From: Squalus acanthias
Taxonomy: Eukaryota
Reading direction: 5' to 3'
Length of the DNA stretch: 64,000 nt
Assembly: GCA_030390025.1 (NCBI GenBank)
Contig: CM059431.1
Coordinates: 119,538,001-119,602,000 of the forward strand
The notes under the pieces were generated by a model. That model searched no databases and was not told where the DNA came from. It saw only the letters and a list, made by a program, of their open reading frames with translations. A program made the translations under genes and the position numbers. Below are positions 5,121-20,075 of the stretch, in pieces. Position 1 is the stretch's first letter. Every line of letters starts with the position of its first letter.

Positions 5121-5276
5121 ACAAAAAATGCTGGAAATACTCAGCAGATCAGGCAGCATCTTTGGAGAGAGAAACAGGGTTAACATTTCAGGCTGATGAC
5201 CTTTCATCAGAACTGGCAAAAGTTAGAGATGTAACAGGTTTTAAGCAAGTACAGAGGCAGGGGAAGTGGGAGGGGA
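5121..5276 (-). mobile_element. Penelope-like element, 3' part (split by the provirus)
   Basis: Continuous with 17929 onward once the provirus and one GGGA copy are removed; hammerhead-like core on the minus strand at about 5177-5214. Confidence 0.75.
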
Positions 5277-5394
5277 TGTAGAATTCGCAATTATCGCGAT
5301 TTCATTTTATTAAGGAGAAAACACAAGTTTCATTCAAAACAGCTTTTATTTCAGCGGAATGCTGTCAGGTTTAAATTGGACACAAGCAGCCTGT

Positions 5395-5457
5395 AAAATG
5401 GCCGCCGCACCGCGTGACAGAACATTCGAGACTTTTCGGCAGGCAGACAAGATGGCG
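5395..5457 (+). promoter_or_regulatory. Two YY1-like motifs in U3
   Basis: AAAATGGCCGCC (5395-5406) and AAGATGGCG (5449-5457); both ATGGC cores are retained in the solo LTRs at 26651 and 44792. Confidence 0.45.
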
Positions 5458-5840
5458 TTCCAATAAACATTTTTGCAGGATCGATAACGATTCAGCACAG
5501 TGAAGACAATACACAGGACATTATGGGTTTACAGTATAAACATCGATACTGGAATCGGTCTCCCAGGTACAAAGGAAAGCCATCAAGGGCCCATCCAAAG
5601 GACATTAATATGTAAACTCCCAACGGCTCTACGATGAGAGAGCCGTTAGCAGGTAGTTATACAGGACACTTGGAAGCCCCAAACCCCTCCAGGGGGAACA
5701 CCGACCGATTTAACAATGGGAGAAGTATTAGCAGGTACTCAAACATTCAGGAGTAGCCCCGAAACCCATTAAAGACAGAGATCACCCATACAGGACTTTT
5801 TGGGCGCCAAACCTTAAACAAAAGAATGGACATTATAGTT

Positions 5841-5872
5841 GGGCGGGAAACGGAAGAACTGTGCACTATAAT
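5841..5872 (+). promoter_or_regulatory. Candidate LTR core promoter (GC box, ETS-like CGGAAG, TATA-like TATAAT)
   Basis: GGGCGGGA 5841-5848, CGGAAG 5851-5856, TATAAT 5867-5872; GCACTATAA is conserved in the two related solo LTRs. Confidence 0.45.
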
Positions 5873-6917
5873 TGCAGGCCCAAACCGTCCATTCTGTCTC
5901 TTGACTCTTGATTCTTGCTCCTGCCTCGTGTTCGTGACTCTTGCCGCTTGCTGCTGTTATCATCGTGGCTGCTCCTGTGTTTTATCCGGTCGATTCGTAA
6001 CCTCGTGGCTGCTCCTGGGTAAAAGACTGTTGCAAAGACCTATGTTGGTAGCTGGCAGCGGAACCGAAGGCCCGGGATGAGATGAGATGAGATGAGATAA
6101 GAGGAGAAGAGAAGAAGACCTTATCCATCGCCACGGTCAGTAAATCCCGACCGCGCCTGTAGGTCGATCAGCCAAGTCTTCTTGACAGGAAGTTCTCTTC
6201 TTTAACAAAACATATTGCATCGATGATAACTGGACTGTGCAAACACATCGTATCAGCGATATTGACAACGGTGCTCCACCATACCCTGTATCCAACCAAC
6301 AGAGGTCTTCACTACAGCGGACGGTCCAGCCGACTGACCGAGCAGCAGAAGCAGTAAACAAGTGGGACCAGGAGATCTCCTGACCAACACGTGGGTGCTG
6401 CGGTGAAAAACATCCGATCAGCTATTCGGGATTTTCTCCGAGTTATTACGAGTGGTGAGCATGAGTCTCGGGATCCTACGAAGCTAGTTTTAGGATAGTT
6501 ATTGATAGGGGAGGGTTGAAAGTTTAAGGATATTTGTAATGTGTGCCCTATTTACGTTGTGCTGGTCGTTCCTCGTTTCCCTAAGAGTGATTATAACTGT
6601 TTGTAAGATTGTACTGTCATTCATCTGTGCATATGACATGTATTTCATAATTTTAAGTATCATGCAATAAAGATTTTCCATTTCGTACCGTTCAAACCAA
6701 GTCTACATGAGTTTTATCTCCATTACTGCTCTCGCATCTAAGTCCAGTGTCTAGAACCGTAAGGGAGAGTGATTCGAACCACTCACAGGGGTGTCTAGTG
6801 TTCCCAGACTGGCTGGAGACCAGGCCTAGACCCGCACTGACATACAGGCTGCACAGAGCCGCGTGAACCTCACAGGTTACGAGACACGCAGGGTCAGGAG
6901 AGTATCCCTTACAGAAA

Positions 6918-8729
6918 ATGGCGACCGCGGCAGGACATTGGCAGCGAGAGGGTGGTGTGTTGGATTTTGGAATGACTGTACGAAATGTGATGCAGGAAAA
7001 GATAGCGGATTACGTGTTTGGAAAGGTTAATCTAACGAAAAAGTGGATAAGCGAATTGTTAGCGGATAAGAGCCCACTAGAGGCAGCTGAAAGGTGGACG
7101 GATAGTAAGGAGCATAAAAAGGCAGTTGAGAAAGCAGTCTGGCTTATGTGCTACAAAAGGCAGGTCCAGATTTCAAACCAGACCAATACAGCGCTAACCG
7201 CTCGAATCAAGCAGTTAGAGGAGGAAATGGAGGAGAAGGTTTCTGGAGGGGAGGTGCTCATTAAGAGTTTAAATGAGTTACGCCAGGAAAGCCAGGAAGT
7301 CTCCAGCTACCTTAAAACAAGGGTAGAGTATCTCGAGTGCCAGATCACTGAAGCAAAATTAAACGAGAATAGGATGAAGGAAAGATGTAACCGTCAAGCT
7401 GCCCAGATAAGAACTCAAGAAGAGAGCTTAATGGGGGTTAGGTCGGCGTATAAGTTGGCCCTTGAGGATAAGTTTCAGGGAGCCGACCATAGCGCCTGCG
7501 AAAAAGAGATAGAGAGCCTCAAAAGGGCCGTGAATAATGCGAACGGCATGGTGTGCCTTATTAATCCGTCGGCACGCCAGCCGCTAGTAAATGAGAGATT
7601 TAGAAATTCCCCACCAAGTAAAGCAGAAGAGGTAGTAGCCACTGCGCCCTCCGCGCCACCCAGCTATTCAGAAACCTGGGTTAGGGAGGAAGCAACGGAA
7701 GAAACAAAAGAGCCCGTTGAAAAGGAAGTAGAAAAGGGATCGTTGTATCCAGTAACGGGGATTAAAAGGGGCCCAAGCAGAAACGGTGGGGAAGAACCGG
7801 GGGATCTCCTCGGACAGCTGGTGTTGCCTCACAGTTCACATCAGCTGAGGGCTATGATAAACCACGTAAGGAAGCTGACCGAGATAGACGACCCTTCCGT
7901 ACATTTTAGGGAAGTTGAGCAAGCCGCAGCCATCAACGGCTGCGATGATGGGGAGACAGCAAAAATGCTGCTGTTCTCGTTAGATAGCTCGGTCCTTCAG
8001 TGTCTCTCAGGCGATAGCAAGAGGGGTAATAAAAGTTATGAGGAATTGAAAAATGAGGTCCTAGAAGTAGTGGGAGCGAACGACGGAGGTCCGTTTGCTA
8101 GAGTGGGACAGACAGTGCAGATGGAGGGAGAACCCCCGAAGGTTTTTGCCGACAGGCTGTGGCCAGTATATGAGCGCAGCTGTCTAGGTGCGCCCGAACG
8201 CGAAGATGTGGAAGGCGCCGCTTTAATTCATTGGCTTAGGTGCATAATAGCCAACAGTTTACCAGCCGTTAGAGAGCAGGCAAAAGCCTGGTTCGATCCC
8301 AATGACCTCAACCTTACGGAAGAGTCGGTCTTGAATCGACTCACGTTAGGTTACCGTAACATAAGGGGTATGGCAACACGTCCCTTTAAGGGAAGAGTAC
8401 ATGAGGTACGACCCGCAGCCCCGGCTCAAAGAGAGTGGCATCAGGAGGGTAATCGCGCCCCACCGGCAAGCAATGCCTGTTACGGGTGTGGGAAGACAGG
8501 GCACTGGCGCAAGCACTGCAGGAACCCTTGGAAGGATTCCAAGGATAAGAATCCCGCGGTCCGAGCCCAGGCGCCTGTCCCGGCTAAGGAAGCAAAGGTA
8601 CCCACCTCTCCCGAAGACCTCGAAGCAGTGTTAGGAGTCATGCGCAAGATGGTTTTAAATGCGCGTGGACAGGTGGCGGTCGCAACCGGCCCCGTAGGTG
8701 CCGCAGGACCGTCTAATAGTGCCCCATGA
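6918..8729 (+). CDS. gag: Gag polyprotein (603 aa)
   Basis: Long open frame right after the 5' LTR; coiled-coil-like N-terminal half, PSAPPSY late domains (7647-7667), capsid-like middle, CYGCGKTGHWRKHC zinc knuckle (8478-8519). Confidence 0.93.
   Translation: MATAAGHWQREGGVLDFGMTVRNVMQEKIADYVFGKVNLTKKWISELLADKSPLEAAERWTDSKEHKKAVEKAVWLMCYKRQVQISNQTNTALTARIKQLEEEMEEKVSGGEVLIKSLNELRQESQEVSSYLKTRVEYLECQITEAKLNENRMKERCNRQAAQIRTQEESLMGVRSAYKLALEDKFQGADHSACEKEIESLKRAVNNANGMVCLINPSARQPLVNERFRNSPPSKAEEVVATAPSAPPSYSETWVREEATEETKEPVEKEVEKGSLYPVTGIKRGPSRNGGEEPGDLLGQLVLPHSSHQLRAMINHVRKLTEIDDPSVHFREVEQAAAINGCDDGETAKMLLFSLDSSVLQCLSGDSKRGNKSYEELKNEVLEVVGANDGGPFARVGQTVQMEGEPPKVFADRLWPVYERSCLGAPEREDVEGAALIHWLRCIIANSLPAVREQAKAWFDPNDLNLTEESVLNRLTLGYRNIRGMATRPFKGRVHEVRPAAPAQREWHQEGNRAPPASNACYGCGKTGHWRKHCRNPWKDSKDKNPAVRAQAPVPAKEAKVPTSPEDLEAVLGVMRKMVLNARGQVAVATGPVGAAGPSNSAP
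6919..6936 (+). promoter_or_regulatory. Primer-binding site, tRNA-Arg(UCG) type
   Basis: TGGCGACCGCGGCAGGAC, 5 nt after the LTR end; it is the reverse complement of ...GTCCTGCCGCGGTCG-CCA, the vertebrate tRNA-Arg(TCG) 3' end as recalled (not searched). Confidence 0.85.
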
Positions 8730-11700
8730 CTAGAACCAGCACAGCCCGTCTACCTGTGTCCGCTCAGCTATGATGCGTGGAGGCGACCTGTGGTGGAGAT
8801 GGAGGTAGAGAAACAAAAGGGCAGTTATCTGTTGGACACGGGAGCTTCTTGCACCATAATCCATACAGATGACCCTTTTGACTCGCCGCTATCTACCAAG
8901 GTCCCATTCACGCTAGCAGGGTTCACAGGGAAAGAACAGGCTGGCACGTTTTCCCTCCCGCTATCCATTCGTTTAGGAACACTTCGCCTTAAGTGGAAGT
9001 GTATACTGATGGCATGGCAAAAGGGGGGTGGAAGAGGTATTCTCGGGTCCGATCTGCTAGCGGGACACGGGATCCTCGTGGACCTCAGAAATCACTGTCT
9101 CTGGGGGGCTAAAGGGGAAAAGGGCGAAGTAATGGTAATTCAAGGGGAGGAAGAAACAGGGGTCCTGTGTACCGTACAGCCATCCGGAGGCTACGACCTC
9201 AGGCTTATGGTCGCAGATGTCCCAACGGACATGCAGACGTACGTGACAGATAATATGCACGCGTTTGCAACCCACAAGCACGATTGTGGGAGGGTGGTCG
9301 GGTTTGAGGTCAGCGTAGATGGGGACCCCATGACCCGACCCCAAAAGCAGTATAACTTCCCCAAAGAAGCAGAACCCGATATGGAGGCAGCAATGTCTTC
9401 CTTGGTGCAGCAGGGCGTGTTGAGGCCGATAGCCACACACGTGAACTCCCCATTATGGCCGGTTAGGAAGCCGGATAATTCGTGGAGAGCCACGGTGGAC
9501 TACAGAGTCCTTAACAGTAACATCCCCGCCTGCGCGCCCACAGTAGCAGCAGTTGCTGACCTAATAGGGAGCATCCCAGCGTCCGCGACCACGTTCACGG
9601 TGCTGGATATCTCGAACGGTTTTTGGTCCATCCCGCTGCGGCGAGAGGACCAGTACAAGTTTGCCTTTACGTTTAAAGGGCAACAGTACACGTGGAACTG
9701 CTTGCCACAAGGTTTCCACAATAGCCCCAGTATTTTTCACCAGTGTATGGCAGGGAGTTTAAAGGAGTTTAGTCAGCCCAATCAGATAGTACAGTATGTG
9801 GATGATTTGCTCCTATTTACGGACTCAAGGGAGGAGCACGGACCACTGCTGGACGAGTTATTGGAGCTGTTAGCGAGAAAGGGTTTTAAAGTAAACCCAA
9901 AGAAAGCACGTATCGGTCAGCAGGAAGTAAAATTCCTGGGACTGACCCTACGCGCTGGGGAAAGAGCCATAGACAAAGCAAGGAGGGAGTCGGTGCAAGA
10001 ATTACCGATTCCCAACAACGTAAGGGGTGTGAGGTCCTTCTTGGGACTGACCGGTTACTGCAGGGATTTTATCGAGGATTATGCGGCCACAGCGGCGCCG
10101 CTCCTCCGACTCCTCCATAAGGGAGTAGAGTGGCTTTGGGACGAGGGCTGCCAAGCAGCCTTCGAGAAGTTAAAAAGGGATCTGCAGACCGCGCCAGCCT
10201 TAGGGGCCATAGATGGGGGGAAGGAGTTTTTCCTGGAGGTAGCTGCCAGCGGAGACAGCTTAAGCGCCGTGCTGCTCCAAGAGCGTCACGGCAAGCTGAG
10301 GCCGGTTGTCTATTCATCCAGGGTATTAACGGATGTGGAGAGAAGTTTTTCCAATTGCGAAAGGCACCTTTTAGCCACGCATTGGGCTGTGAAAAGATCA
10401 GCGATCTTCACAGGGCTCTCTCCCATCACTCTCCTCACACATCACACACCAACTAAGATGCTTCTGGATGGGAGGATTAAAGACGGGACCGTAAGCAGCG
10501 CACGCATTGCGCGTTGGACCCTTCTTCTCTCCCAGTTGGACATCAGAGTAAAAGGTCTTTGCGAGCCCAGGCTTGCGGCCAATTTGGTATACCCCGGTAC
10601 AGCCCACCGGTGTTCGGTGGAGGGGGTGTGGGAAGTCAACATAGGTTTACGGGCCGGGATACATCCCACTGGGCGCGAGATTTATGTTGATGGGTCTAGC
10701 ACAGTATCTGCTGGCGAGCGACTCACAGGGTGTGGAGTTTATGACCCTGCGGCAGACCTTGCCCTGGCGATCAAGCTCCCTAGCACCATGAGCGCGCAGC
10801 AGGCTGAGCTGTCTGCCGTGGTGTACGTGGTAACCCACCCAGACATTTTCCCAACCCCATACACGATTTGCTCGGACAGTATGTTCACCTGCAATTCGTG
10901 TACGGAATACCTGGCCATTTGGTCCCGCCGTGGATACACCTCCGCGGACGGGCGACCTTTAACGGTAAAGCCCTTGCTGGAAAAGATCTTAGCAGCAGCA
11001 GTAGGGGAGGAAGGGGAGATTTTCATCCATAAGGTGAAAGCTCACTCCTCCACAGAGCCCCGTGGGGAGGGCAACCGGCAGGCGGATGCGCTAGCCAGGG
11101 AGGGTGCCCGCGACGGTACTTTCTGGAACCCCTATAGAACCGGACCCATAGCAGCGGTCCGAGGTGGGGACGGGAATACCGGGAACACCAGGGTAGCATT
11201 GCCCCTAGACCTTAAGACCGTCCAAGCCCAGGATCCCGCCCTAAAAGCAGTCCTAAAAACGATTGCTGAGGGGAGGCAGGTAGAAGGTCCGTACAGTACG
11301 GCAACCCTCTCAGTTAAGGAAGGCATGCTGTTCCGCGAGGAGCAGTGGGTTGTGCCGCAGCAGCACAGGAGGGAATTCCTCCAGTTGGCTCACGAGGGAC
11401 CAGGGGCAGGGCACCCCGGGCCCGAGGTTACCTGGCAACGGGTAGAGCAAGCGGGATGGTGGCCAGGGCTCAGGGAACAAGTCCGCGAGTTCTGTGCAAA
11501 CTGTCTTGTGTGCGCTGCAAATAACCCAGACCCCCAGAAAAGGAAGGTGCCCATGGGACACGTAAGAAGGGTAGAGGGACCATGGCAGTCGATACAGATC
11601 GACTATATAGGACCCCTGCCCACCACCCAGGGAGGTTATAAGTACTGCCTCGTCCTGGTGGATGTGTTTTCCAAGTGGGTGGAAGCCTTCCCTTGTCGAA

Positions 11701-13232
11701 CAGCTACGGCACTGGGTACAGCAAAAATCTTGGTCCGGGAAGTGTTCTCGCGGTGGGGACTCCCCCGTTTCGTGGAGTCAGACCAAGGGAGTCATTTCAC
11801 CGGCCAGGTGATGCAGAACACCCTCATGCTTTTGGGCATTGAAGGGAAGTGGCACGTAGCACACAATCCCCAGTCATCCGGGATTGTTGAACGTATGAAC
11901 CGGACCCTGAAGGAGAAATTGAGGAAAGAGACTAGGAACTCGCCCCAAAAATGGGCGGAAGTTCTGCCTTTAGTCCTCATGGGGGTCCGGGCCAGTCAGT
12001 CAAAAAGTACGGGGTACTCCCCGCACGAGGTAATGACCGGCAGGCTCATGCGAACCCCCACCCATGTGCTAGCCCCGGTGCTCACTGAGGGTCAGCTTCA
12101 AGAGATCAGCAGGGACAAGTTCGCCCAAACTCTCTTGGAGCGCCTGAAGCAAGTTTATGAGCAGGCGGCTGGGAACATGGGAAGGCAGCACCAGGGCAAT
12201 CGCTTGTTGCTGGAACCCCGCAAAACGCGGGAGTGGGAAGTAGGAGACCAGGTCATGGTCAGAAACTACGCCAGAGTAGGGAGTCTGGAACCACTGTATA
12301 TGGGACCCTACAACATTGTAGACAAGGCAAGTCCCATGGTTTACGCCGTAAAAGTACCTCGGCGCACTAAGTGGTTCCACATAAACCAATGTAAACTGTA
12401 CCAGCCGGGTGCGCAAGGGAAAACTACAGGGGTAAATCCCGCCAACGGGAAAACACAGCCCCAGGTAGGACCACAAGGCACACAGGCAGGCGTAGCAGCT
12501 TGCATCAGGGGAAGGGACATCCCGGACGATCATGCAGCGTTTTTCTGGAGTTGGGGGTTAGATGACGAGGACCCCAGGGTACCCTGGTCAGATGAGGATA
12601 GTGCAGATGAGCATAGTGATGATGACGGGTGGTTTCACAGGAACGGTCTGGAAGGATTGGGGCCGCTAGGTAGAGATCCATACGGGGTGGACACACAAGC
12701 TGCAGGTCCCGACAGCAGGAGGAAGGAGCTAGAGGAGGCCGGGCCAGCCGCTATGTGGTTCCCAGAGGTGTGGCCGCCCGCTTTAAACGTCCAGTCCTCA
12801 GGGGAGGCAGAGTTCGCGAGTGAAGGGCTGCCTGCTGGGCCGAGCAGGGCGGGGCCCCGAACTGCCAGCCCCGAGGTTAGGGAGGCGGAGTCAGCGGAGG
12901 CGGGGCTGGCGCCTGTGATGGAACCCCAGGTCATCCCGTTGAAGGTCTCGGGACCCGGTCCGTCCGTCACGGAGCCCCCGCCCATAGCAGTTCCCCGTAG
13001 GTCAAGCAGAGCACCCCAGCCCAGGAAGACGTGGTCAGGTCCACAGGCTGCCCCAGGGCGTAAGTTTCAGGTTAAGATAACCCGGGTAGAGACAGGCCAC
13101 ATCGAAGCAGTAACAGGCTGCGGCAGATCAGAGGAAAGGGTCAGCGCAGCAACAGGCTGCGGCAGATCAGAAGGAAGGGTCAGTGCCCTCCCACCGTCGG
13201 GAAGAGCTCGCAGCAGCCTTCTCAGGATTTAA
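8730..13232 (+). CDS. pol: Pol polyprotein PR-RT-tether-RNase H-IN plus C-terminal extension, in frame with gag behind one TGA
   Basis: RPVV..YLLDTGAS (protease); LDISNGF, LPQGF, YVDD (RT); FFLEVAAS (degenerate RH); IYVDGS..AELSAV..SDS..KAH..ADALA (RNase H); HHCC zinc motif, DYIG..SDQG..VERMN (DDE integrase); GPY motif. Confidence 0.96.
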   Translation, partial: LEPAQPVYLCPLSYDAWRRPVVEMEVEKQKGSYLLDTGASCTIIHTDDPFDSPLSTKVPFTLAGFTGKEQAGTFSLPLSIRLGTLRLKWKCILMAWQKGGGRGILGSDLLAGHGILVDLRNHCLWGAKGEKGEVMVIQGEEETGVLCTVQPSGGYDLRLMVADVPTDMQTYVTDNMHAFATHKHDCGRVVGFEVSVDGDPMTRPQKQYNFPKEAEPDMEAAMSSLVQQGVLRPIATHVNSPLWPVRKPDNSWRATVDYRVLNSNIPACAPTVAAVADLIGSIPASATTFTVLDISNGFWSIPLRREDQYKFAFTFKGQQYTWNCLPQGFHNSPSIFHQCMAGSLKEFSQPNQIVQYVDDLLLFTDSREEHGPLLDELLELLARKGFKVNPKKARIGQQEVKFLGLTLRAGERAIDKARRESVQELPIPNNVRGVRSFLGLTGYCRDFIEDYAATAAPLLRLLHKGVEWLWDEGCQAAFEKLKRDLQTAPALGAIDGGKEFFLEVAASGDSLSAVLLQERHGKLRPVVYSSRVLTDVERSFSNCERHLLATHWAVKRSAIFTGLSPITLLTHHTPTKMLLDGRIKDGTVSSARIARWTLLLSQLDIRVKGLCEPRLAANLVYPGTAHRCSVEGVWEVNIGLRAGIHPTGREIYVDGSSTVSAGERLTGCGVYDPAADLALAIKLPSTMSAQQAELSAVVYVVTHPDIFPTPYTICSDSMFTCNSCTEYLAIWSRRGYTSADGRPLTVKPLLEKILAAAVGEEGEIFIHKVKAHSSTEPRGEGNRQADALAREGARDGTFWNPYRTGPIAAVRGGDGNTGNTRVALPLDLKTVQAQDPALKAVLKTIAEGRQVEGPYSTATLSVKEGMLFREEQWVVPQQHRREFLQLAHEGPGAGHPGPEVTWQRVEQAGWWPGLREQVREFCANCLVCAANNPDPQKRKVPMGHVRRVEGPWQSIQIDYIGPLPTTQGGYKYCLVLVDVFSKWVEAFPCRTATALGTAKILVREVFSRWGLPRFVESDQGSHFTGQVMQNTLMLLGIEGKWHVAHNPQSSGIVERMNRTLKEKLRKETRNSPQKWAEVLPLVLMGVRASQSKSTGYSPHEVMTGRLMRTPTHVLAPVLTEGQLQEISRDKFAQTLLERLKQVYEQAAGNMGRQHQGNRLLLEPRKTREWEVGDQVMVRNYARVGSLEPLYMGPYNIVDKASPMVYAVKVPRRTKWFHINQCKLYQPGAQGKTTGVNPANGKTQPQVGPQGTQAGVAACIRGRDIPDDHAAFFWSWGLDDEDPRVPWSDEDSADEHSDDDGWFHRNGLEGLGPLGRDPYGVDTQAAGPDSRRKELEEAGPAAMWFPEVWPPALNVQSSGEAEFASEGLPAGPSRAGPRTASPEVREAESAEAGLAPVMEPQVIPLKVSGPGPSVTEPPPIAVPRRSSRAPQPRKTWSGPQAAPGRKFQVKITRVETGHIEAVTGCGRSEERVSAATGCGRSEGRVSALPPSGRARSSLLRI

Positions 13233-13514
13233 AGGGGCCGCCCTGAGAACGGGCGGCATTGTAAAGTTATTAGTTTAAGGTTTTAAGTTTAGTTTAAAGT
13301 TTTAAGTAGTTTTAATAAGTTTAAGTTTGTAGTGGTTTTAACAGATAACGACAAATGATGGGAGTTTTAAGGCCAGGTTTAGAGGAAGTCTGTTCAGCAA
13401 AAGTTGAAGTTTACGTGAGGCGAGGTCAGGGGACCCGCTCACCCTTCACAAAAGCCAGAGACTTTTTGCGAGGCTGGCTACCTCATTCTATCTGATCACA
13501 GGAACCAAGGAAGG

Positions 13515-15866
13515 ATGGAACGACTCATAGTATTGCTCGTGGCAATCGGATGTGGATTGGCCTATCGGGGCCTCACCAAGGATGTCGTGGTGTTTGGATG
13601 TTCCGGGGACACGGCCCCCATCGCGGTGGATGGGACCGGGAGACGGAAGGCAGAAGGGACCAGCACCTATTTCCACAAGGGAAGGTGGCCAGGATGGCTG
13701 GGAACGAACTCAACGGAGTATTCCAGCACATCGGGGTTCGCCTACAAAGAGACTTCTTTAATGTGCCCCAAAGTACGGATCATCGCACCCAGGATCAGCG
13801 TCACCGTCGGCAAACGGATTTGTTTGACTTGCAGTGGGAATGTCCCATTGAGCCGATGGTGGTGGCTGCGAAAGCTGAGCAAAACTATGAGGAACTCTTC
13901 GGTTGAGTGGGAGCGACTGGGTAATAATACCCATCGGACAATTACGGGGACTGATGGACAAGTGAAAGTCTGTTGGGACAAATGGTGGGAACCAGATGAG
14001 GGGATTTATGTTTGTATGTGGGGGTCAAAGTACGTTTGCCCCAAAGGCATCTCCATATTCTTTATTAACCAGTGGCAGGATAACGGACAGGGGATGAGGT
14101 GGGATGCGAGCACCAGGGGGTGCGGAGCCCCATTCTCCCCGATCCCAGTAAATGCCACTGAGCTCATTACGCGCCCACGCAAAGCCCCGCCCACGATTCC
14201 GGTGGTTCTAGCTGAGGAAGAAGGGTGCCCTAAAACTAGTAAGGGACCCGGGAACGGTTTGGTACTGGTCCCCACAGACCAGATACTATTTCAGGGAGTG
14301 CATTACGCGGTGGCCTCGGTGATTTTAAATCTCACTGAGGTACGGTTACCAGAGTGGTGCCCCAAAAAGACGGAACAGTTGTACCAGGTCCTGTTGACCA
14401 AGATGTTCAGGCAGTTTTACGAGTTCGATTTCGCGGAAATTGATAAGACAAGTTTATACACCGCACCGCAGGAAGTTTTGGATCAAGTTGGGAGGCAAAG
14501 AAGGGGTTTGGTGAACGATGCGTTCACTGCTTTTAACACAGGGACATCTGTGGTCAACGCTCTAGACAGTGTGGAGCTGCAGACCCAGATTAATGGTTTA
14601 AAAACACAGTTAAAGGATATTCTCACAGATGAGAATAAAGTGGTAGGGTCGGGTCTGCACGAGGACCAAGCCATGACACTACACTTAAAAGAGATTATAG
14701 CAGAGCTGGAGAAACATGCGCGTACGGTAAATGCCCTGATTAGGGAAGATCGGAATGCATCCGATCAAGCTGCGCAGAACGAGGTGTGCGTGCTTTACGG
14801 GGCGTGGTTACTGGGCGAGGGCCGCAGTAATTTGGAGGATTTAAAACAAGGTTTGGTCCCGTCCTGGATAAGTAACAAACACCTGCGGGCGCTCCACCCT
14901 TTTCAGAATGCATTAAGTCCGTGCCAGCTCAGGCTAGCTTCAGAAGCTTACCCAGTCCCCGTGGACTGCGGACGTTCAAACCATACTATTATGGGAATAG
15001 TATTACGCATGCCGGTTTTGGGCAACACAGCAAAGCCCGCCCCGGTGTATCGGGTAGAGAACATTGGTGTCATTCAGGGGGGAGCCCACATTCGTTATGC
15101 AGCGGTTCCACCTTACGTCATCCGCTGGGAGCAAACGATGACAGGTACAGATCTCTCTGGTTGTCGTGGCAGGGGAGCACACATAATACTGTGCCCCCAG
15201 CACTTGAATGCCTTTTTAACACCACAGTGCGGGTTCAGAACGGCTGGCGCCAAGTCCATGAATTGCACCATGGAGGCAATGGCACAAGATCATGTGCCTC
15301 CGCAGGTAGCATACATCGGGGGTGGAACATATTGTGTTACCACTGCAGCGCAACACTACCAGCATGGAAACCGTAGCCGGTGTCCGGTGAGTGACAGCAG
15401 TTTCTGTTTTAAACCCAGGGCTGAAGTTCAAGTAGCACAACAGCGAATTATCCCAATCCCTGAACCATCCACTGTTCACCTCACAGTAAAAGAGAATTTT
15501 ACCGACTTGCAGCGATTTGTCGCACATTTTGGGTACCTCATTCCCCCTCTCCCCGAGCATTTAACCAAACTTCTAAAAGCCGTCGCGGTGTCACAAAAGC
15601 ATTTCTATACATTAGAACAGAAAACCGTCGAGATAGGTACAGACATTTTGGACATAGTGGTTCCACCGTGGTGGAATCTGTTCACGAATATTGAAGTGCC
15701 CTCATGGGTCAGAATAGCCTCCCACATTTTAGTCGTCTGTCAAGTGTTTATTGTAGTATACCTTTTGTTCATACATTGTAAAAGAGACAAGCGCCTCACC
15801 AAGCATGAGAACACGGGAGAGTGGCGAGAACGTTACGTGCGCGTGCACGATGAGAGCGCAGTGTAA
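13515..15866 (+). CDS. env: Envelope glycoprotein (783 aa): signal peptide, Ig-like domain, F-like class I fusogen, TM anchor
   Basis: Signal MERLIVLLVAIGCGLA; furin site RQRR (14493-14504), then fusion-peptide-like GLVNDAFTAFNTG and a heptad repeat; Cys-rich region; TM ILVVCQVFIVVYLLFI; several N-x-S/T sequons. Confidence 0.9.
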   Translation: MERLIVLLVAIGCGLAYRGLTKDVVVFGCSGDTAPIAVDGTGRRKAEGTSTYFHKGRWPGWLGTNSTEYSSTSGFAYKETSLMCPKVRIIAPRISVTVGKRICLTCSGNVPLSRWWWLRKLSKTMRNSSVEWERLGNNTHRTITGTDGQVKVCWDKWWEPDEGIYVCMWGSKYVCPKGISIFFINQWQDNGQGMRWDASTRGCGAPFSPIPVNATELITRPRKAPPTIPVVLAEEEGCPKTSKGPGNGLVLVPTDQILFQGVHYAVASVILNLTEVRLPEWCPKKTEQLYQVLLTKMFRQFYEFDFAEIDKTSLYTAPQEVLDQVGRQRRGLVNDAFTAFNTGTSVVNALDSVELQTQINGLKTQLKDILTDENKVVGSGLHEDQAMTLHLKEIIAELEKHARTVNALIREDRNASDQAAQNEVCVLYGAWLLGEGRSNLEDLKQGLVPSWISNKHLRALHPFQNALSPCQLRLASEAYPVPVDCGRSNHTIMGIVLRMPVLGNTAKPAPVYRVENIGVIQGGAHIRYAAVPPYVIRWEQTMTGTDLSGCRGRGAHIILCPQHLNAFLTPQCGFRTAGAKSMNCTMEAMAQDHVPPQVAYIGGGTYCVTTAAQHYQHGNRSRCPVSDSSFCFKPRAEVQVAQQRIIPIPEPSTVHLTVKENFTDLQRFVAHFGYLIPPLPEHLTKLLKAVAVSQKHFYTLEQKTVEIGTDILDIVVPPWWNLFTNIEVPSWVRIASHILVVCQVFIVVYLLFIHCKRDKRLTKHENTGEWRERYVRVHDESAV

Positions 15867-16282
15867 TGGGAAGATGGCGTCACTCCCGCTCGCCACGTGC
15901 GCCGCGGAAGTTTGTACTCAGTGTAAATACGTTGGAAACTCGACATGTTTAAGAGTTGGGATTTGTTTATTTTGGTGATGGTGTTGATTGTTTGGTTTTT
16001 TTTGGGTTTTGTTTTTCCTTTCCCTGAATAAAAGATAAATATACAGGTGATGCGTGAGGTATCGGCCTGGTTACGCCGGGAAGGAAGACAAGTGGTGTAA
16101 GTTTAAGGGCAAATGATGCCTATGGTGATATAAAATGTGATTTTCTTGGGAAATAAGGACGACACAGAGACCCTAGTTAAGTTAAAATTTATGGGATTAA
16201 TTTACTGGATTCGGAGTGAAATCGAGATAAGATTGCTCACCACTGAGTTTTTGATACGATAAGCGGAGTTATTCGCATCAAC

Positions 16283-16290
16283 AGGAGGGA
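16283..16290 (+). promoter_or_regulatory. Polypurine tract (short)
   Basis: AGGAGGGA, 1 nt before the TG of the 3' LTR. Confidence 0.7.
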
Positions 16291-16291
16291 C

Positions 16292-17928
16292 TGTAGAATT
16301 CGCAATTATCGCGATTTCATTTTATTAAGGAGAAAACACAAGTTTCATTCAAAACAGCTTTTATTTCAGCGGAATGCTGTCAGGTTTAAATTGGACACAA
16401 GCAGCCTGTAAAATGGCCGCCGCACCGCGTGACAGAACATTCGAGACTTTTCGGCAGGCAGACAAGATGGCGTTCCAATAAACATTTTTGCAGGATCGAT
16501 AACGATTCAGCACAGTGAAGACAATACACAGGACATTATGGGTTTACAGTATAAACATCGATACTGGAATCGGTCTCCCAGGTACAAAGGAAAGCCATCA
16601 AGGGCCCATCCAAAGGACATTAATATGTAAACTCCCAACGGCTCTACGATGAGAGAGCCGTTAGCAGGTAGTTATACAGGACACTTGGAAGCCCCAAACC
16701 CCTCCAGGGGGAACACCGACCGATTTAACAATGGGAGAAGTATTAGCAGGTACTCAAACATTCAGGAGTAGCCCCGAAACCCATTAAAGACAGAGATCAC
16801 CCATACAGGACTTTTTGGGCGCCAAACCTTAAACAAAAGAATGGACATTATAGTTGGGCGGGAAACGGAAGAACTGTGCACTATAATTGCAGGCCCAAAC
16901 CGTCCATTCTGTCTCTTGACTCTTGATTCTTGCTCCTGCCTCGTGTTCGTGACTCTTGCCGCTTGCTGCTGTTATCATCGTGGCTGCTCCTGTGTTTTAT
17001 CCGGTCGATTCGTAACCTCGTGGCTGCTCCTGGGTAAAAGACTGTTGCAAAGACCTATGTTGGTAGCTGGCAGCGGAACCGAAGGCCCGGGATGAGATGA
17101 GATGAGATGAGATAAGAGGAGAAGAGAAGAAGACCTTATCCATCGCCACGGTCAGTAAATCCCGACCGCGCCTGTAGGTCGATCAGCCAAGTCTTCTTGA
17201 CAGGAAGTTCTCTTCTTTAACAAAACATATTGCATCGATGATAACTGGACTGTGCAAACACATCGTATCAGCGATATTGACAACGGTGCTCCACCATACC
17301 CTGTATCCAACCAACAGAGGTCTTCACTACAGCGGACGGTCCAGCCGACTGACCGAGCAGCAGAAGCAGTAAACAAGTGGGACCAGGAGATCTCCTGACC
17401 AACACGTGGGTGCTGCGGTGAAAAACATCCGATCAGCTATTCGGGATTTTCTCCGAGTTATTACGAGTGGTGAGCATGAGTCTCGGGATCCTACGAAGCT
17501 AGTTTTAGGATAGTTATTGATAGGGGAGGGTTGAAAGTTTAAGGATATTTGTAATGTGTGCCCTATTTACGTTGTGCTGGTCGTTCCTCGTTTCCCTAAG
17601 AGTGATTATAACTGTTTGTAAGATTGTACTGTCATTCATCTGTGCATATGACATGTATTTCATAATTTTAAGTATCATGCAATAAAGATTTTCCATTTCG
17701 TACCGTTCAAACCAAGTCTACATGAGTTTTATCTCCATTACTGCTCTCGCATCTAAGTCCAGTGTCTAGAACCGTAAGGGAGAGTGATTCGAACCACTCA
17801 CAGGGGTGTCTAGTGTTCCCAGACTGGCTGGAGACCAGGCCTAGACCCGCACTGACATACAGGCTGCACAGAGCCGCGTGAACCTCACAGGTTACGAGAC
17901 ACGCAGGGTCAGGAGAGTATCCCTTACA
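16292..17928 (+). repeat. 3' LTR
   Basis: Same length as the 5' LTR and no differences in the segments compared by eye; followed by the GGGA TSD. Confidence 0.97.
17681..17686 (+). terminator. Polyadenylation signal in the LTR (5' copy at 6666-6671)
   Basis: AATAAAGATT is conserved in all LTR families of this group in the window. Confidence 0.65.
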
Positions 17929-20075
17929 GGGAGGAAAGAACAAAAGGGAAGGTCTGTGATAGGGTGGAAGGCAGGAGAGATTGAATGACAAAAGGGATGA
18001 TGGTGCAAGGCAAAAGGGGATGGTCATGGGACAAGTAAAGAAACAAAAGATGGGTCTAGAGGTGGTGTAAATGGCATAGCAGAATCATCAACAGCTGCCG
18101 TCTGAAAAAATGGGAGCAGTGGTTATGAACTGAAATTGTTGAATTCAATGTTGAGTCCAGAAGGCTGTAAAATGCCTAATCAAAAGATGAGATGCTGTTC
18201 CTAGAGCTTCCGCGGAGCTTCATTGGAACAGTGTAGGAGGCCAAGGACAGAGTAGTTAGAGTGGGAGTGTGGCGGAGAATTAAAATGACAAGCGACCAGA
18301 AGTTCCGGGTCATGCTTGCGGACTGAATGCAGGTGTTCCGCAAAGCGATCACCCAATCTGCATTTAGTCTCCCCAATGTAGAGGAGACCGCATCATGAGC
18401 AGCGAATACAGTGTACTAAATTGAAAGAAGTACAAGTAAATCGTTGTTTCACCTGGAAGGATTATTTGGGGCCCTGGACGGTGGGAAGGGAGGAAGTGAA
18501 AGGGTAGATGTTGCATCTCTTGCGCTTGCATGGGAAGGGTGTGTTGGGGGTTATTGAAGAGTGGACCAGGCTGTTTTGGAGGGAACAGTCCCTTCGGAAT
18601 CTGAAAGGGGAGGGAAAGATGTGTTTGGTGGTGGCATCACACTGAAGGTGGCGGAAATGACAGAGGATGATCCATTGAATGTCGAGACTGGTGAAGTGAA
18701 AGGTAAGGCAAGGGGAACCCTATCGTGGTTCTAGGAGGAAGGAGAAGGGGTGAGAGCAGATGTGCGGGAAATGGGACGGACACGGTCGAGGGCCCTGTTA
18801 ACCAAGGTGGAGGGGAATCCTCGGTTAAGAAAAAGGAAAACATATTGGAATTATTGGTGTGGAACGTGGCATCGTCAGAACAGATGCCACAGAGACGGAG
18901 AAACTGGGAGAATGGAATAGAATCCTTACAGGAAGTGGGGTGGGGGGAAGTGTAATCAAGGTGGTTGTGGGAGTCAGTGGGCTTATACTAGATATTGGTT
19001 GACAGCCTATCAGCAGAAATGGAGACAGAGAAGTCGAGGAAGGGAATGGAAGAGCTGGAGATGGACCACGTGAAAGTGAGGGAAGGTTGGAAATTGGAAG
19101 CAAAGTGAATGAAATTTTCCAATTTGGGGCTGGAGCAGGAAACCGCACTGATACAGTCATCAATGTACCGGAAAAAGAGGTGAGGGAGGGGACCTGAGTA
19201 GGACTAGAACAAAGAATGTTCCACATTTCACACAAAAAGGCGTATGGGTTCCCATAGCAACACCTTTTATATGGAGGAAGTGAGTGGAGTCAAAGGAGAA
19301 GTCATTCAATGTAAAAACAAGTTCAGCCAGGCGGAGGAGGGTGGTAGTGGATGGGGACTGGTTGGGCCTCTGTTCAAGGAAAAATTGGAGGGCCCTCAGG
19401 CCATCCTGGTGAGGGATGGAGGTGTAGAGGGATTGGATGTCCATGGTGAAAAGGAGACAGTTGGGGCCAGGAAACTGTTAAAGTGGCAGAGGGCATCAGA
19501 AGATTCGTGGATGTAAGTGGGAAGAGACTGGACAAGGTGAGAAAAAATAGTGTCAAGATAGGAAAAAATCAGTTCCGTGGGGTAACAACAGGCTGAAACG
19601 ATCGGTCTACCAAGGCAGTCCTGTTTTGAATCTTGAGAAGGAAGTAGAAACGGGCTGTTCGGCGTTGGCTGACTATGAGGTTGAAAGCCATGGAGGGAAG
19701 ATCTCCAGAGGATATGAGATCAGTGACAGTCTGGGAAATGATAGCTTGATGTTCACTGTTGAGGTCATGGTCCAGGGGGAGGCAGAGGGAGGTGTCAGAG
19801 AGTTTGCGTTCAGCCTCTGCAATGTAGAGGTCGGTTCGCCAAACAAGAGAGGGAGGTAGGTTAGAGTGAGTGAGCGGAGTAGAAAAATTGAAACGGCTGA
19901 TGTCAGGCCAGCAGTCCTCAATGAAAAGATCTAGAGAGGGTAAGAGGCCAGTGGCCAGAGGGAGGGGTCCAGGTGGAACGAGAATTCTGAAGACGGGAGA
20001 AAGGGTCCACTGTGCATGGAGAAGACTCCCTTCATCCTCAGCCAAAGCCTCAGCTTCATCCCCTTACGCCCCGCC
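17929..20075 (-). mobile_element. Penelope-like element, degenerate RT and GIY-YIG endonuclease
   Basis: Minus-strand DIQSLYTSIPHQDGL, KGVAMGT and FTCTSFNLVHCIRCS..LYIGETK (about 18320-18450); short inverted segment (LSFIPLRP on +) at about 20030-20075. Confidence 0.85.

Follow-up and report, generated by a model that had tools for sequence, protein, structure and literature searches.

The 64,000-nt stretch of Squalus acanthias DNA analysed here (contig CM059431.1; called the window, with positions counted from its first letter) contains on its + strand a complete provirus with the order LTR-gag-pol-env-LTR (LTR, long terminal repeat), whose envelope protein (Env) is the main subject of this work. 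Residues 85-185 of this Env probably adopt an immunoglobulin (Ig) fold of the V/I-set type, which is moderately supported by many weak but agreeing results from sequence comparison and structure prediction. On balance, the best explanation of the findings is that this Ig-like sandwich forms the core of a head of ~225 residues (17-244) placed before an F2-like part, so that attachment and fusion would be combined in a one-chain class I protein of a very young, high-copy, lokiretrovirus-like element.

An Ig-like domain ahead of an F-type fusion body

The Ig-like stretch is encoded by window positions 13761-14070, corresponding to Env residues 83-185 (MCPKVRII..ISVTVGKRICLTC..RWWWLRK..VKVCW..DEGIYVC..KGISIFFIN). 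A first-pass annotation, made from the DNA letters, had pointed to Ig hallmarks at this place, and translation reproduces them together with their numbering, namely C106 (within VTVGKRICLTC), the tryptophans W115-W117 and the signature D161-E-G-I-Y-V-C167. The B- and F-strand cysteines of Ig domains lie ~55-75 residues apart, and C106 and C167, with a spacing of 61 residues, are both retained in the four relatives that cover them (4/4). A C-strand tryptophan is expected 10-15 residues past the first cysteine, where W115-W117 is located, with W117 kept in all six relatives covering it, and within the D-x-G-x-Y-x-C signature G, Y and C are invariant and D161 is exchanged for E in one of four relatives (P0005). 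At 53-72% identity, the full-domain relatives P0003, P0007, P0011 and P0005 (4/4) keep C103, C106, W117, C153, G163, Y165, C167 and C175, and the fragment relative P0027 carries F at position 106. C103 and C106 constitute a C-x-x-C in the Ig B strand (C103-L-T-C106, window 13821-13832), which reads CLVC, CLTC or CLSC in close relatives. Another shark clade, with Cys-rich heads, has the counterparts CFTC, CVQC and CLFC. Alternatively, C103 may have its partner in C153 of the adjacent strand.

Those searches that return anything for the Ig-like stretch mostly return Ig domains, all of them under the formal thresholds. The Pfam family Ig_3 matches the Ig-like piece at E 0.013-0.016 (16.4 bits; cut-off 30) and the corresponding pieces of four out of five relatives, with a best E of 0.0014. 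Comparison of the whole Env with PDB sequences by phmmer gave five matches at E<=10, three of which are Ig domains (JAM-A and two antibody light-chain variable domains), all on residues 80-175, and a five-sequence profile of the head retrieved CRTAM with an E of 0.012, the match covering 91 of the 111 positions (11-101), with Ig-superfamily adhesion molecules making up 8 of its 10 PDB matches. Likeness to the first domains of CRTAM (4h5s), JAM-A (1f97), IgLON and DIP proteins extends over nearly the whole domain at sub-threshold E values of 0.012 to 1, but it is not significant, and the head differs from these adhesion domains in a W-rich C strand and in two extra cysteine pairs predicted from the sequence (C84/C175 and C103/C153). 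In an ESM Atlas feature search with residues 80-192, the top matches bearing a family are Ig families (score 0.90).

An AlphaFold2 (AF2) model of residues 20-235, computed from nine sequences, has a mean predicted local distance difference test score (pLDDT) of 44, with values of 50-66 in the Ig part. Eight strands are predicted in it with low confidence (87-96, 101-107, 115-120, 132-135, 141-146, 149-155, 164-168 and 181-185), and, judged by the hallmark residues, they occupy the places of strands A, B, C, C', D, E, F and G. Structure comparison of the N-terminal part, proposed as a check in the first-pass annotation, pointed to Ig domains without reaching significance: V domains of antibodies or nanobodies make up nearly all rows listed by Foldseek against the PDB (E from 0.012, TM-score to target ~0.5, 90-100 columns), and no match attains E<=0.001. 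VIA-align of the head model against 48,161 chains placed a ZP-N domain first (Z 5.2), followed by titin Ig, LAG3, B7-1, a skate IgNAR V domain, NKp44 and TREM-1 at Z 4.2-4.9, which the tool rates as weak. Against viral structures, Foldseek yielded no match at E<=0.001 for the head model, and scattered herpes/pox Ig-like proteins were seen at E>=0.04.

The body that follows was modelled as part of the full Env with AF2, using a 40-sequence alignment (mean pLDDT 62, with residues 236-650 mostly at 80-95). Foldseek comparison of this model with the PDB revealed 237 matches at E<=0.001, headed by the F protein of human parainfluenza virus 3 (1ztm, 3.1e-10), with post-fusion respiratory syncytial virus F, Newcastle disease virus F, Langya F and Nipah F among the other leading matches. 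Similarly, VIA-align gave Z 11.4 to Nipah F (8dmj; root-mean-square deviation 4.9 over 289 aligned residues), and 72 chains had Z>=8. Among the rows listed, the VIA alignments to F begin at Env 243-245, equivalent to F residues 24-38, i.e. the start of mature F2, and therefore residues 17-244 represent an addition before an otherwise complete F, in line with the earlier placing of an Ig-like module ahead of an F-type fusion protein. Likeness to paramyxovirus and pneumovirus F proteins (1ztm, 8dmj, 6apb, 3maw and 8tvg; VIA Z 10-11.4) comprises the ectodomain fold from Env 245, an internal furin-type cleavage site, a long HRA helix, HRB and a transmembrane segment, whereas the ~225 extra residues with the Ig-like domain before F2 and the absence of sequence likeness set this Env apart.

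At the level of sequence, Pfam PF00523 (Fusion_gly) gave no match in Env at E<=10 or in 16 relatives at E<=1, and a profile of 40 Env relatives found no F protein among its 14 matches to PDB sequences; the Env-derived end of the relative P0040 has a sub-threshold match to Baculo_F (E 0.0011). The F-type assignment of the first-pass annotation is thus sustained by fold and finds no counterpart in sequence, and the modelled Env body has the paramyxovirus/pneumovirus F fold in this sense. Env probably functions like F and, as modelled, has its fold, yet it is not filed under the PF00523 family, because a sequence-level match to F is lacking.

Relatives of the head and selection acting on it

A phmmer search of the whole Env against 1.84 billion representative sequences returned 49 matches at E<=0.001, eight of which fall inside Env 1-230. 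All eight are of skate or shark origin, including a skate (Rhinoraja), the whale shark and a sawshark, and consist of pieces of Env or of chimeric gene models; no host Ig-superfamily protein is among them. With identities of 48-72%, the head is shared by elements from skate, whale shark and sawshark and is therefore old within the lineage. The earlier view of the head as a recognisable capture of a host Ig domain is not supported by these matches. Some public gene models (P0004, P0005, P0012 and P0040) join Env fragments to host genes (Niban-like, ZFP2-like zinc fingers, F-box protein), and such fusions are probably annotation chimeras across proviruses.

When the head was used to search for homologues among shorter proteins, P0007 alone was recovered. 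Full-length distant relatives match only from Env 221-237 on and possess an N-terminus of their own, of 151-190 residues, before the CP anchor that opens the F2-like part. A survey for exchanged N-terminal modules, as suggested in the first-pass annotation, was indeed productive, since relatives carry this head, other Ig-like heads, a Cys-rich head or none. The distant heads were compared with the window head one by one, using hhalign against shuffled controls. The Env of the bamboo shark, P0014, already has the automatic UniRef name 'Ig-like domain-containing protein'; its head has 53 phmmer matches in the PDB, all of them antibody heavy-chain variable domains or butyrophilin (best E 0.0055), and it aligns to the window head with an hhalign score of 18.7, reached by none of 40 shuffles, pairing the B strand, the C-strand Trp and the W-x3-W-x4-G-x3-C stretch. 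The Cys-rich head of a shark clade (P0013, P0024 and relatives) scores 19.2, a value reached by none of 30 shuffles, with CFTC aligned to CLTC and LYVC to IYVC, and from these sequence correspondences it may be a remodelled version of the Ig-like head. P0036 has a sub-threshold Pfam V-set match (E 0.045), and its head aligned to the window head out of register with a score of 14.3, which was reached by 1 of 40 shuffles. The frog heads gave no evidence of likeness to the window head in this comparison (12.3, reached by 9 of 40 shuffles), and the ESM Atlas result for the P0020 head (0.84) is a lead only. In the coelacanth P0049 and in P0038 a head is missing, and the signal peptide runs directly into CP.

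A tree of the Env body was built from 17 of the 40 rows, the other 23 having been left out for <55% coverage. Each of its two main groups includes Envs with Ig-like heads. Of the two Envs without a head, P0038 is the sister of P0036, which has one (support 97/95), and P0049 is placed among headed forms. Judged from these sequences, the head is old, variable and dispensable in some lineages, and a fresh host capture is not supported; an ancient host origin is possible, although it can no longer be read from the sequence. As a tentative picture, possible rather than probable, vertebrate F-type retroviral Envs may have a modular 'head slot' between signal peptide and F2, in which an Ig-like receptor-binding head, descended in the end from an adhesion-type Ig domain of a host, has been repeatedly remodelled (as in the Cys-rich variant), replaced and lost. 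Such a head would recognise the molecule on the cell surface with which its adhesion-type ancestor naturally pairs. If this picture is true, the family shows how F gains or loses self-sufficiency for attachment.

Selection on the head was assessed from copies within the same genome. To keep the protein sequence of the head out of the choice, 30 copies were picked by the DNA identity of env nt 787-1500 and the remaining env was compared with that of the window copy; 26 of them aligned gap-free and four were not comparable, and the figures refer to unique differences. None of these 26 copies contains an internal stop. The Ig domain (Env 85-185) shows 8 synonymous and 1 non-synonymous differences, which is a ratio of non-synonymous to synonymous polymorphism (pN/pS) of 0.035, flanked by Env 1-84 with 7 and 3 (pN/pS 0.14) and Env 186-262 with 4 and 2 (pN/pS 0.16), and for Env 501-783 the corresponding numbers are 23 and 2 (pN/pS 0.026). 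Under neutrality, ~78% of changes are expected to be non-synonymous, and the share observed is far below this value; therefore the differences between copies arose with Env, including its head, under purifying selection. Env with its Ig-like domain is under purifying selection among the genomic copies. A separate set of copies gave 70 synonymous versus 13 non-synonymous differences in the body, a count usable for the body only, as these copies were picked by protein identity of Env 1-262 and are biased for the head.

Attachment and its alternatives

Paramyxoviruses use a separate attachment protein (HN, H or G), and the list of open reading frames (ORFs) of this provirus includes no gene for one. 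Receptor-binding viral proteins with an Ig-like core exist, and by analogy with them and with the N-terminal receptor-binding domain plus Pro-rich hinge of gammaretroviral Envs, the Ig-like head is most likely an attachment module, for which we infer receptor binding and triggering. Furin-type cleavage at RQRR330 would yield the head together with F2, disulfide-linked to F1. Tethered above the F trimer by the Pro-rich stretch, the Ig-like head would bind a cell-surface molecule and so take the part of the paramyxovirus attachment protein, and this binding would release F1 to refold. The Pro-rich linker described in the first-pass annotation is present between the Ig-like module and the F2-like part (APFSPIPVNATELITRPRKAPPTIPVV, residues 205-231). 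A related layout is known from the surface subunit (SU) of gammaretroviruses such as murine leukaemia virus, in which an N-terminal receptor-binding beta-sandwich is followed by a Pro-rich hinge and a part holding the fusion subunit, and which carries a C-x-x-C. The Env described here resembles this general layout in its head, Pro-rich stretch, fusion part and C-x-x-C, but it has another type of fusion machinery and its C-x-x-C lies inside the Ig B strand.

Some points speak against a function in attachment. Identity to the skate element is 71-72% in the head versus 68-72% in the flanks, and a head no more diverged than its flanks is unlike a receptor-binding surface engaged in an arms race. 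Furthermore, receptor binding by headless F proteins is known from some pneumoviruses, and hence a head is not required for attachment. The same conservation, equal to that of the body, would be expected of an intramolecular partner, and this leads to the foremost alternative, which we consider rather unlikely, namely that the Ig-like head regulates the F trimer as a cap or clamp. In this reading it would cover the apex of the prefusion form, stabilising this metastable state or screening it from antibodies with its glycans, and attachment would be left to the F body or to non-specific contacts. Consistent with such a cap are the three N-glycosylation sequons in or adjoining the head (N65, N127 and N137), the existence of headless P0038 and P0049, so that the F body may work alone, and the conserved C103-C106 C-x-x-C, which recalls the motif for isomerisation between SU and the transmembrane subunit in gamma-type Envs. 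However, a flexible Pro-rich tether would be expected of a module that reaches out more than of a cap fixed in place, and contacts between head and body appear in no model, although confidence in the head is too low for the models to tell.

A second alternative concerns the fold itself, since the Ig-like stretch could be another beta-rich domain in which Cys, Trp and YxC have come to an Ig-like spacing by chance. Each of the Ig results is sub-threshold (Pfam 16.4 bits versus 30, no Foldseek match at E<=0.001, and a best VIA Z of 5.2, which stands for a common arrangement according to the tool), and the head models are of low confidence (a mean pLDDT of 44 for residues 20-235 and, when the full Env is modelled, 46-61 across the Ig strands), both of which count against an Ig fold. 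A further point against the preferred explanation is that the frog heads (Pelodytes and Mantella), Ig-like by eye, had no Ig domain among 12 matches in a PDB profile search. The first VIA row is ZP-N, and C2 and NPC2 folds are found at similar Z. On the other side, hidden Markov model, profile, language-model features and two structure aligners all indicate Ig domains, and the predicted strands match the positions expected for B, C, C', D, E, F and G relative to the hallmarks, and a chance resemblance is thus regarded as unlikely. Viruses do capture host Ig-superfamily domains, and Ig domains of host adhesion or immune proteins (CRTAM, JAM-A, IgLON, DIPs) provide the best of the sub-threshold matches. 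Yet the proposal of the first-pass annotation that a captured host domain acts in receptor binding or as an immune decoy is, taken as a recent capture, very improbable, given the lack of host proteins among the 49 matches, the sharing of the head by skate, whale-shark and sawshark elements, and its weak likeness to heads found in two further lineages of shark Envs (18.7 and 19.2 by hhalign).

The provirus, its copies and known elements

The features of the provirus and the segments of Env are compiled in the table.

Features of the provirus and of its Env in the window
Feature	Position in window	Strand	Basis
5' LTR	5269..6914	+	blastn between flanks: 1646 nt, 99.88% identical to 16284-17929; TG start ~5278
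gag ORF (603 aa)	6918..8729	+	ORF list; position and zinc-knuckle-like CYGCGKTGHWRKHC in translation
pol ORF (1477 aa)	8799..13232	+	protease, reverse transcriptase, tether (RNase H-like), RNase H, integrase
env ORF (783 aa + stop)	13515..15866	+	ORF list and translation
Signal peptide, residues ~1-16	13515..13562	+	hydrophobic N-terminus; model helix 3-12; putative cleavage point
Pre-Ig segment, residues 17-84 (C29, GRWPGWLGxNS motif, C84)	13563..13766	+	kept in 8 relatives; low-confidence strands
Ig-like (V/I-set-type) domain, residues 85-185	13767..14069	+	hallmarks; profile, feature and fold searches; selection counts
Linker, residues 186-237 (C203, N213 glycosylation sequon, Pro-rich stretch)	14070..14225	+	sequence; pLDDT <50
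F2-like part, residues 238-330	14226..14504	+	ends at furin-type RQRR (327-330; nt 14493-14504)
F1-like ectodomain, residues 331-731	14505..15707	+	AF2 model, Foldseek, VIA
Transmembrane helix (732-756), cytoplasmic tail, stop	15708..15866	+	hydropathy; model helix 730-766
3' LTR	16284..17929	+	blastn pair of 5' LTR (1646 nt, 99.88% identity)

The F2-like part opens with the CP..GP..GL anchor (C238-P239), which is kept in all full-length relatives, and has pLDDT values of 87-95 at residues 241-300. The furin-type RQRR327-330, a predicted cleavage site, is followed by GLVNDAFTAFNTGTSVVNAL / GLVNDAFTAFNTG, and the AF2 model of the F1-like portion comprises the fusion peptide region, the HRA helix (333-444), beta-rich domains (477-645) and the HRB helix (680-711). 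Pol contains matches to RVT_1 (9.5e-36), RT_RNaseH_2 (2e-21), RNase_H (2e-19), Integrase_H2C2 and rve, and its dual RNase H (tether and RNase H) is the layout of retroviruses and lokiretroviruses. Beyond the integrase and an SH3-like part, Pol continues into an acidic, Pro/Gly/Ala-rich tail of ~270 residues (residues ~1200-1477, window ~12400-13232) that has no family match in Pfam. Similarly, gag has no Pfam family at E<=0.01, and the N-terminal part of Gag is long and coiled-coil-like. A primer-binding-site-like sequence, TGGCGACC (window 6915-6940), is located 4 nt past the 5' LTR. As it includes part of the initial ATG of the gag ORF given in the table, Gag probably starts at a later Met. 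Directly downstream of the 3' LTR, window 18001-20000 exhibits a GC skew of 0.41 and an AT skew of 0.20, far above the remaining window, and is probably a simple or strand-biased repeat.

The provirus family is very young and present in high copy number. In a protein search of the genome from which the window derives, 146 of 6434 candidates were scored, all being 99-100% identical over Env 1-262 without stops, and in 123 of them the open frame extends over 815 codons or more. These provirus copies fill the scored list, so that host Ig genes of this genome do not come into view in it. The mostly synonymous differences in env suggest a spread via Env-dependent cycles rather than by intracellular copying. 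At least half of the sampled 31-mers of env (window 13400-15900) are found in contigs of public sequencing runs under seven organism labels from eight studies; no RNA run is among those listed. Four of the public runs were compared with the provirus, and their contigs cover it with a likeness of 90-100%, the differences including many of the types A>G, G>A, C>T and T>C. As the provirus is found in runs under several labels, near-identical elements seemingly occur under more than one organism label. No joint skipping gag-pol was seen in these four runs, whose contigs are of uncertain kind, a result neutral on expression and splicing.

The element is lokiretrovirus-like in its gene layout and in having an Env that, as modelled, is related to F of Mononegavirales by fold and not by sequence. 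Likeness to the published lokiretroviruses (PMC7947760, as far as its accessible text goes) includes LTRs, gag, a pol with tether and RNase H, and an Env of the F kind with signal peptide, RxxR-type site, fusion peptide, coiled coil and transmembrane segment. In the accessible text of this source (Wang & Han 2021, PMC7947760), lampreys, bony fishes, amphibians and reptiles are named as hosts and cartilaginous fishes are not, and the Env relatives found here in frogs, coelacanth and sharks overlap with this host range. The two differ in that the published Env model, in the same accessible portion, names no N-terminal domain and the words 'immunoglobulin', 'receptor', 'shark' and 'cartilaginous' do not occur, and in that the PF00523 sequence match reported there for the F-like lokiretroviral Env was not reproduced for this Env or 16 relatives. 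Env proteins of insect and 'ancient' errantiviruses and baculovirus F (PMC13524379, accessible text) are alike in being a single F-type glycoprotein, in the retroelements without a separate attachment gene, but those elements belong to invertebrates, and the terms 'Ig-like', 'sandwich' and 'receptor-binding' are absent from that portion of the source. PMC13524379 also reports no homology of vertebrate with invertebrate elements.

With respect to novelty, no description of an Ig-like Env head was found in the open full-text literature, supplements and subscription journals aside. In their accessible parts, PMC7947760, its sequel PMC9040795, PMC13524379 and its preprint, the zebrafish BHIKHARI preprint, the Troyka paper and a 2026 review do not tie 'immunoglobulin' or 'Ig-like' to Env. 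The claim that the arrangement is new accordingly stands for the literature searched and is qualified by the automatic UniRef name of P0014.

F-type fusion proteins are the textbook example of a fusion machine that needs an attachment partner, and an F with its own Ig-like head would be a natural one-chain design for attachment plus fusion. The Ig-like head may offer a handle on the receptors of little-known retroviruses of fishes and amphibians, and related Envs with an Ig-like head, an altered head or no head constitute a natural series for the joining and splitting of attachment and fusion in class I proteins. The Env head also bears on the direction of transfer between lokiretroviruses and Mononegavirales-like viruses, either of which may have given its Env or F protein to the other. 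Among endogenous retroviruses with an env gene, the family seems to be one of the youngest and richest in copies, and its env is under purifying selection, which matters for the genome biology of elasmobranchs.

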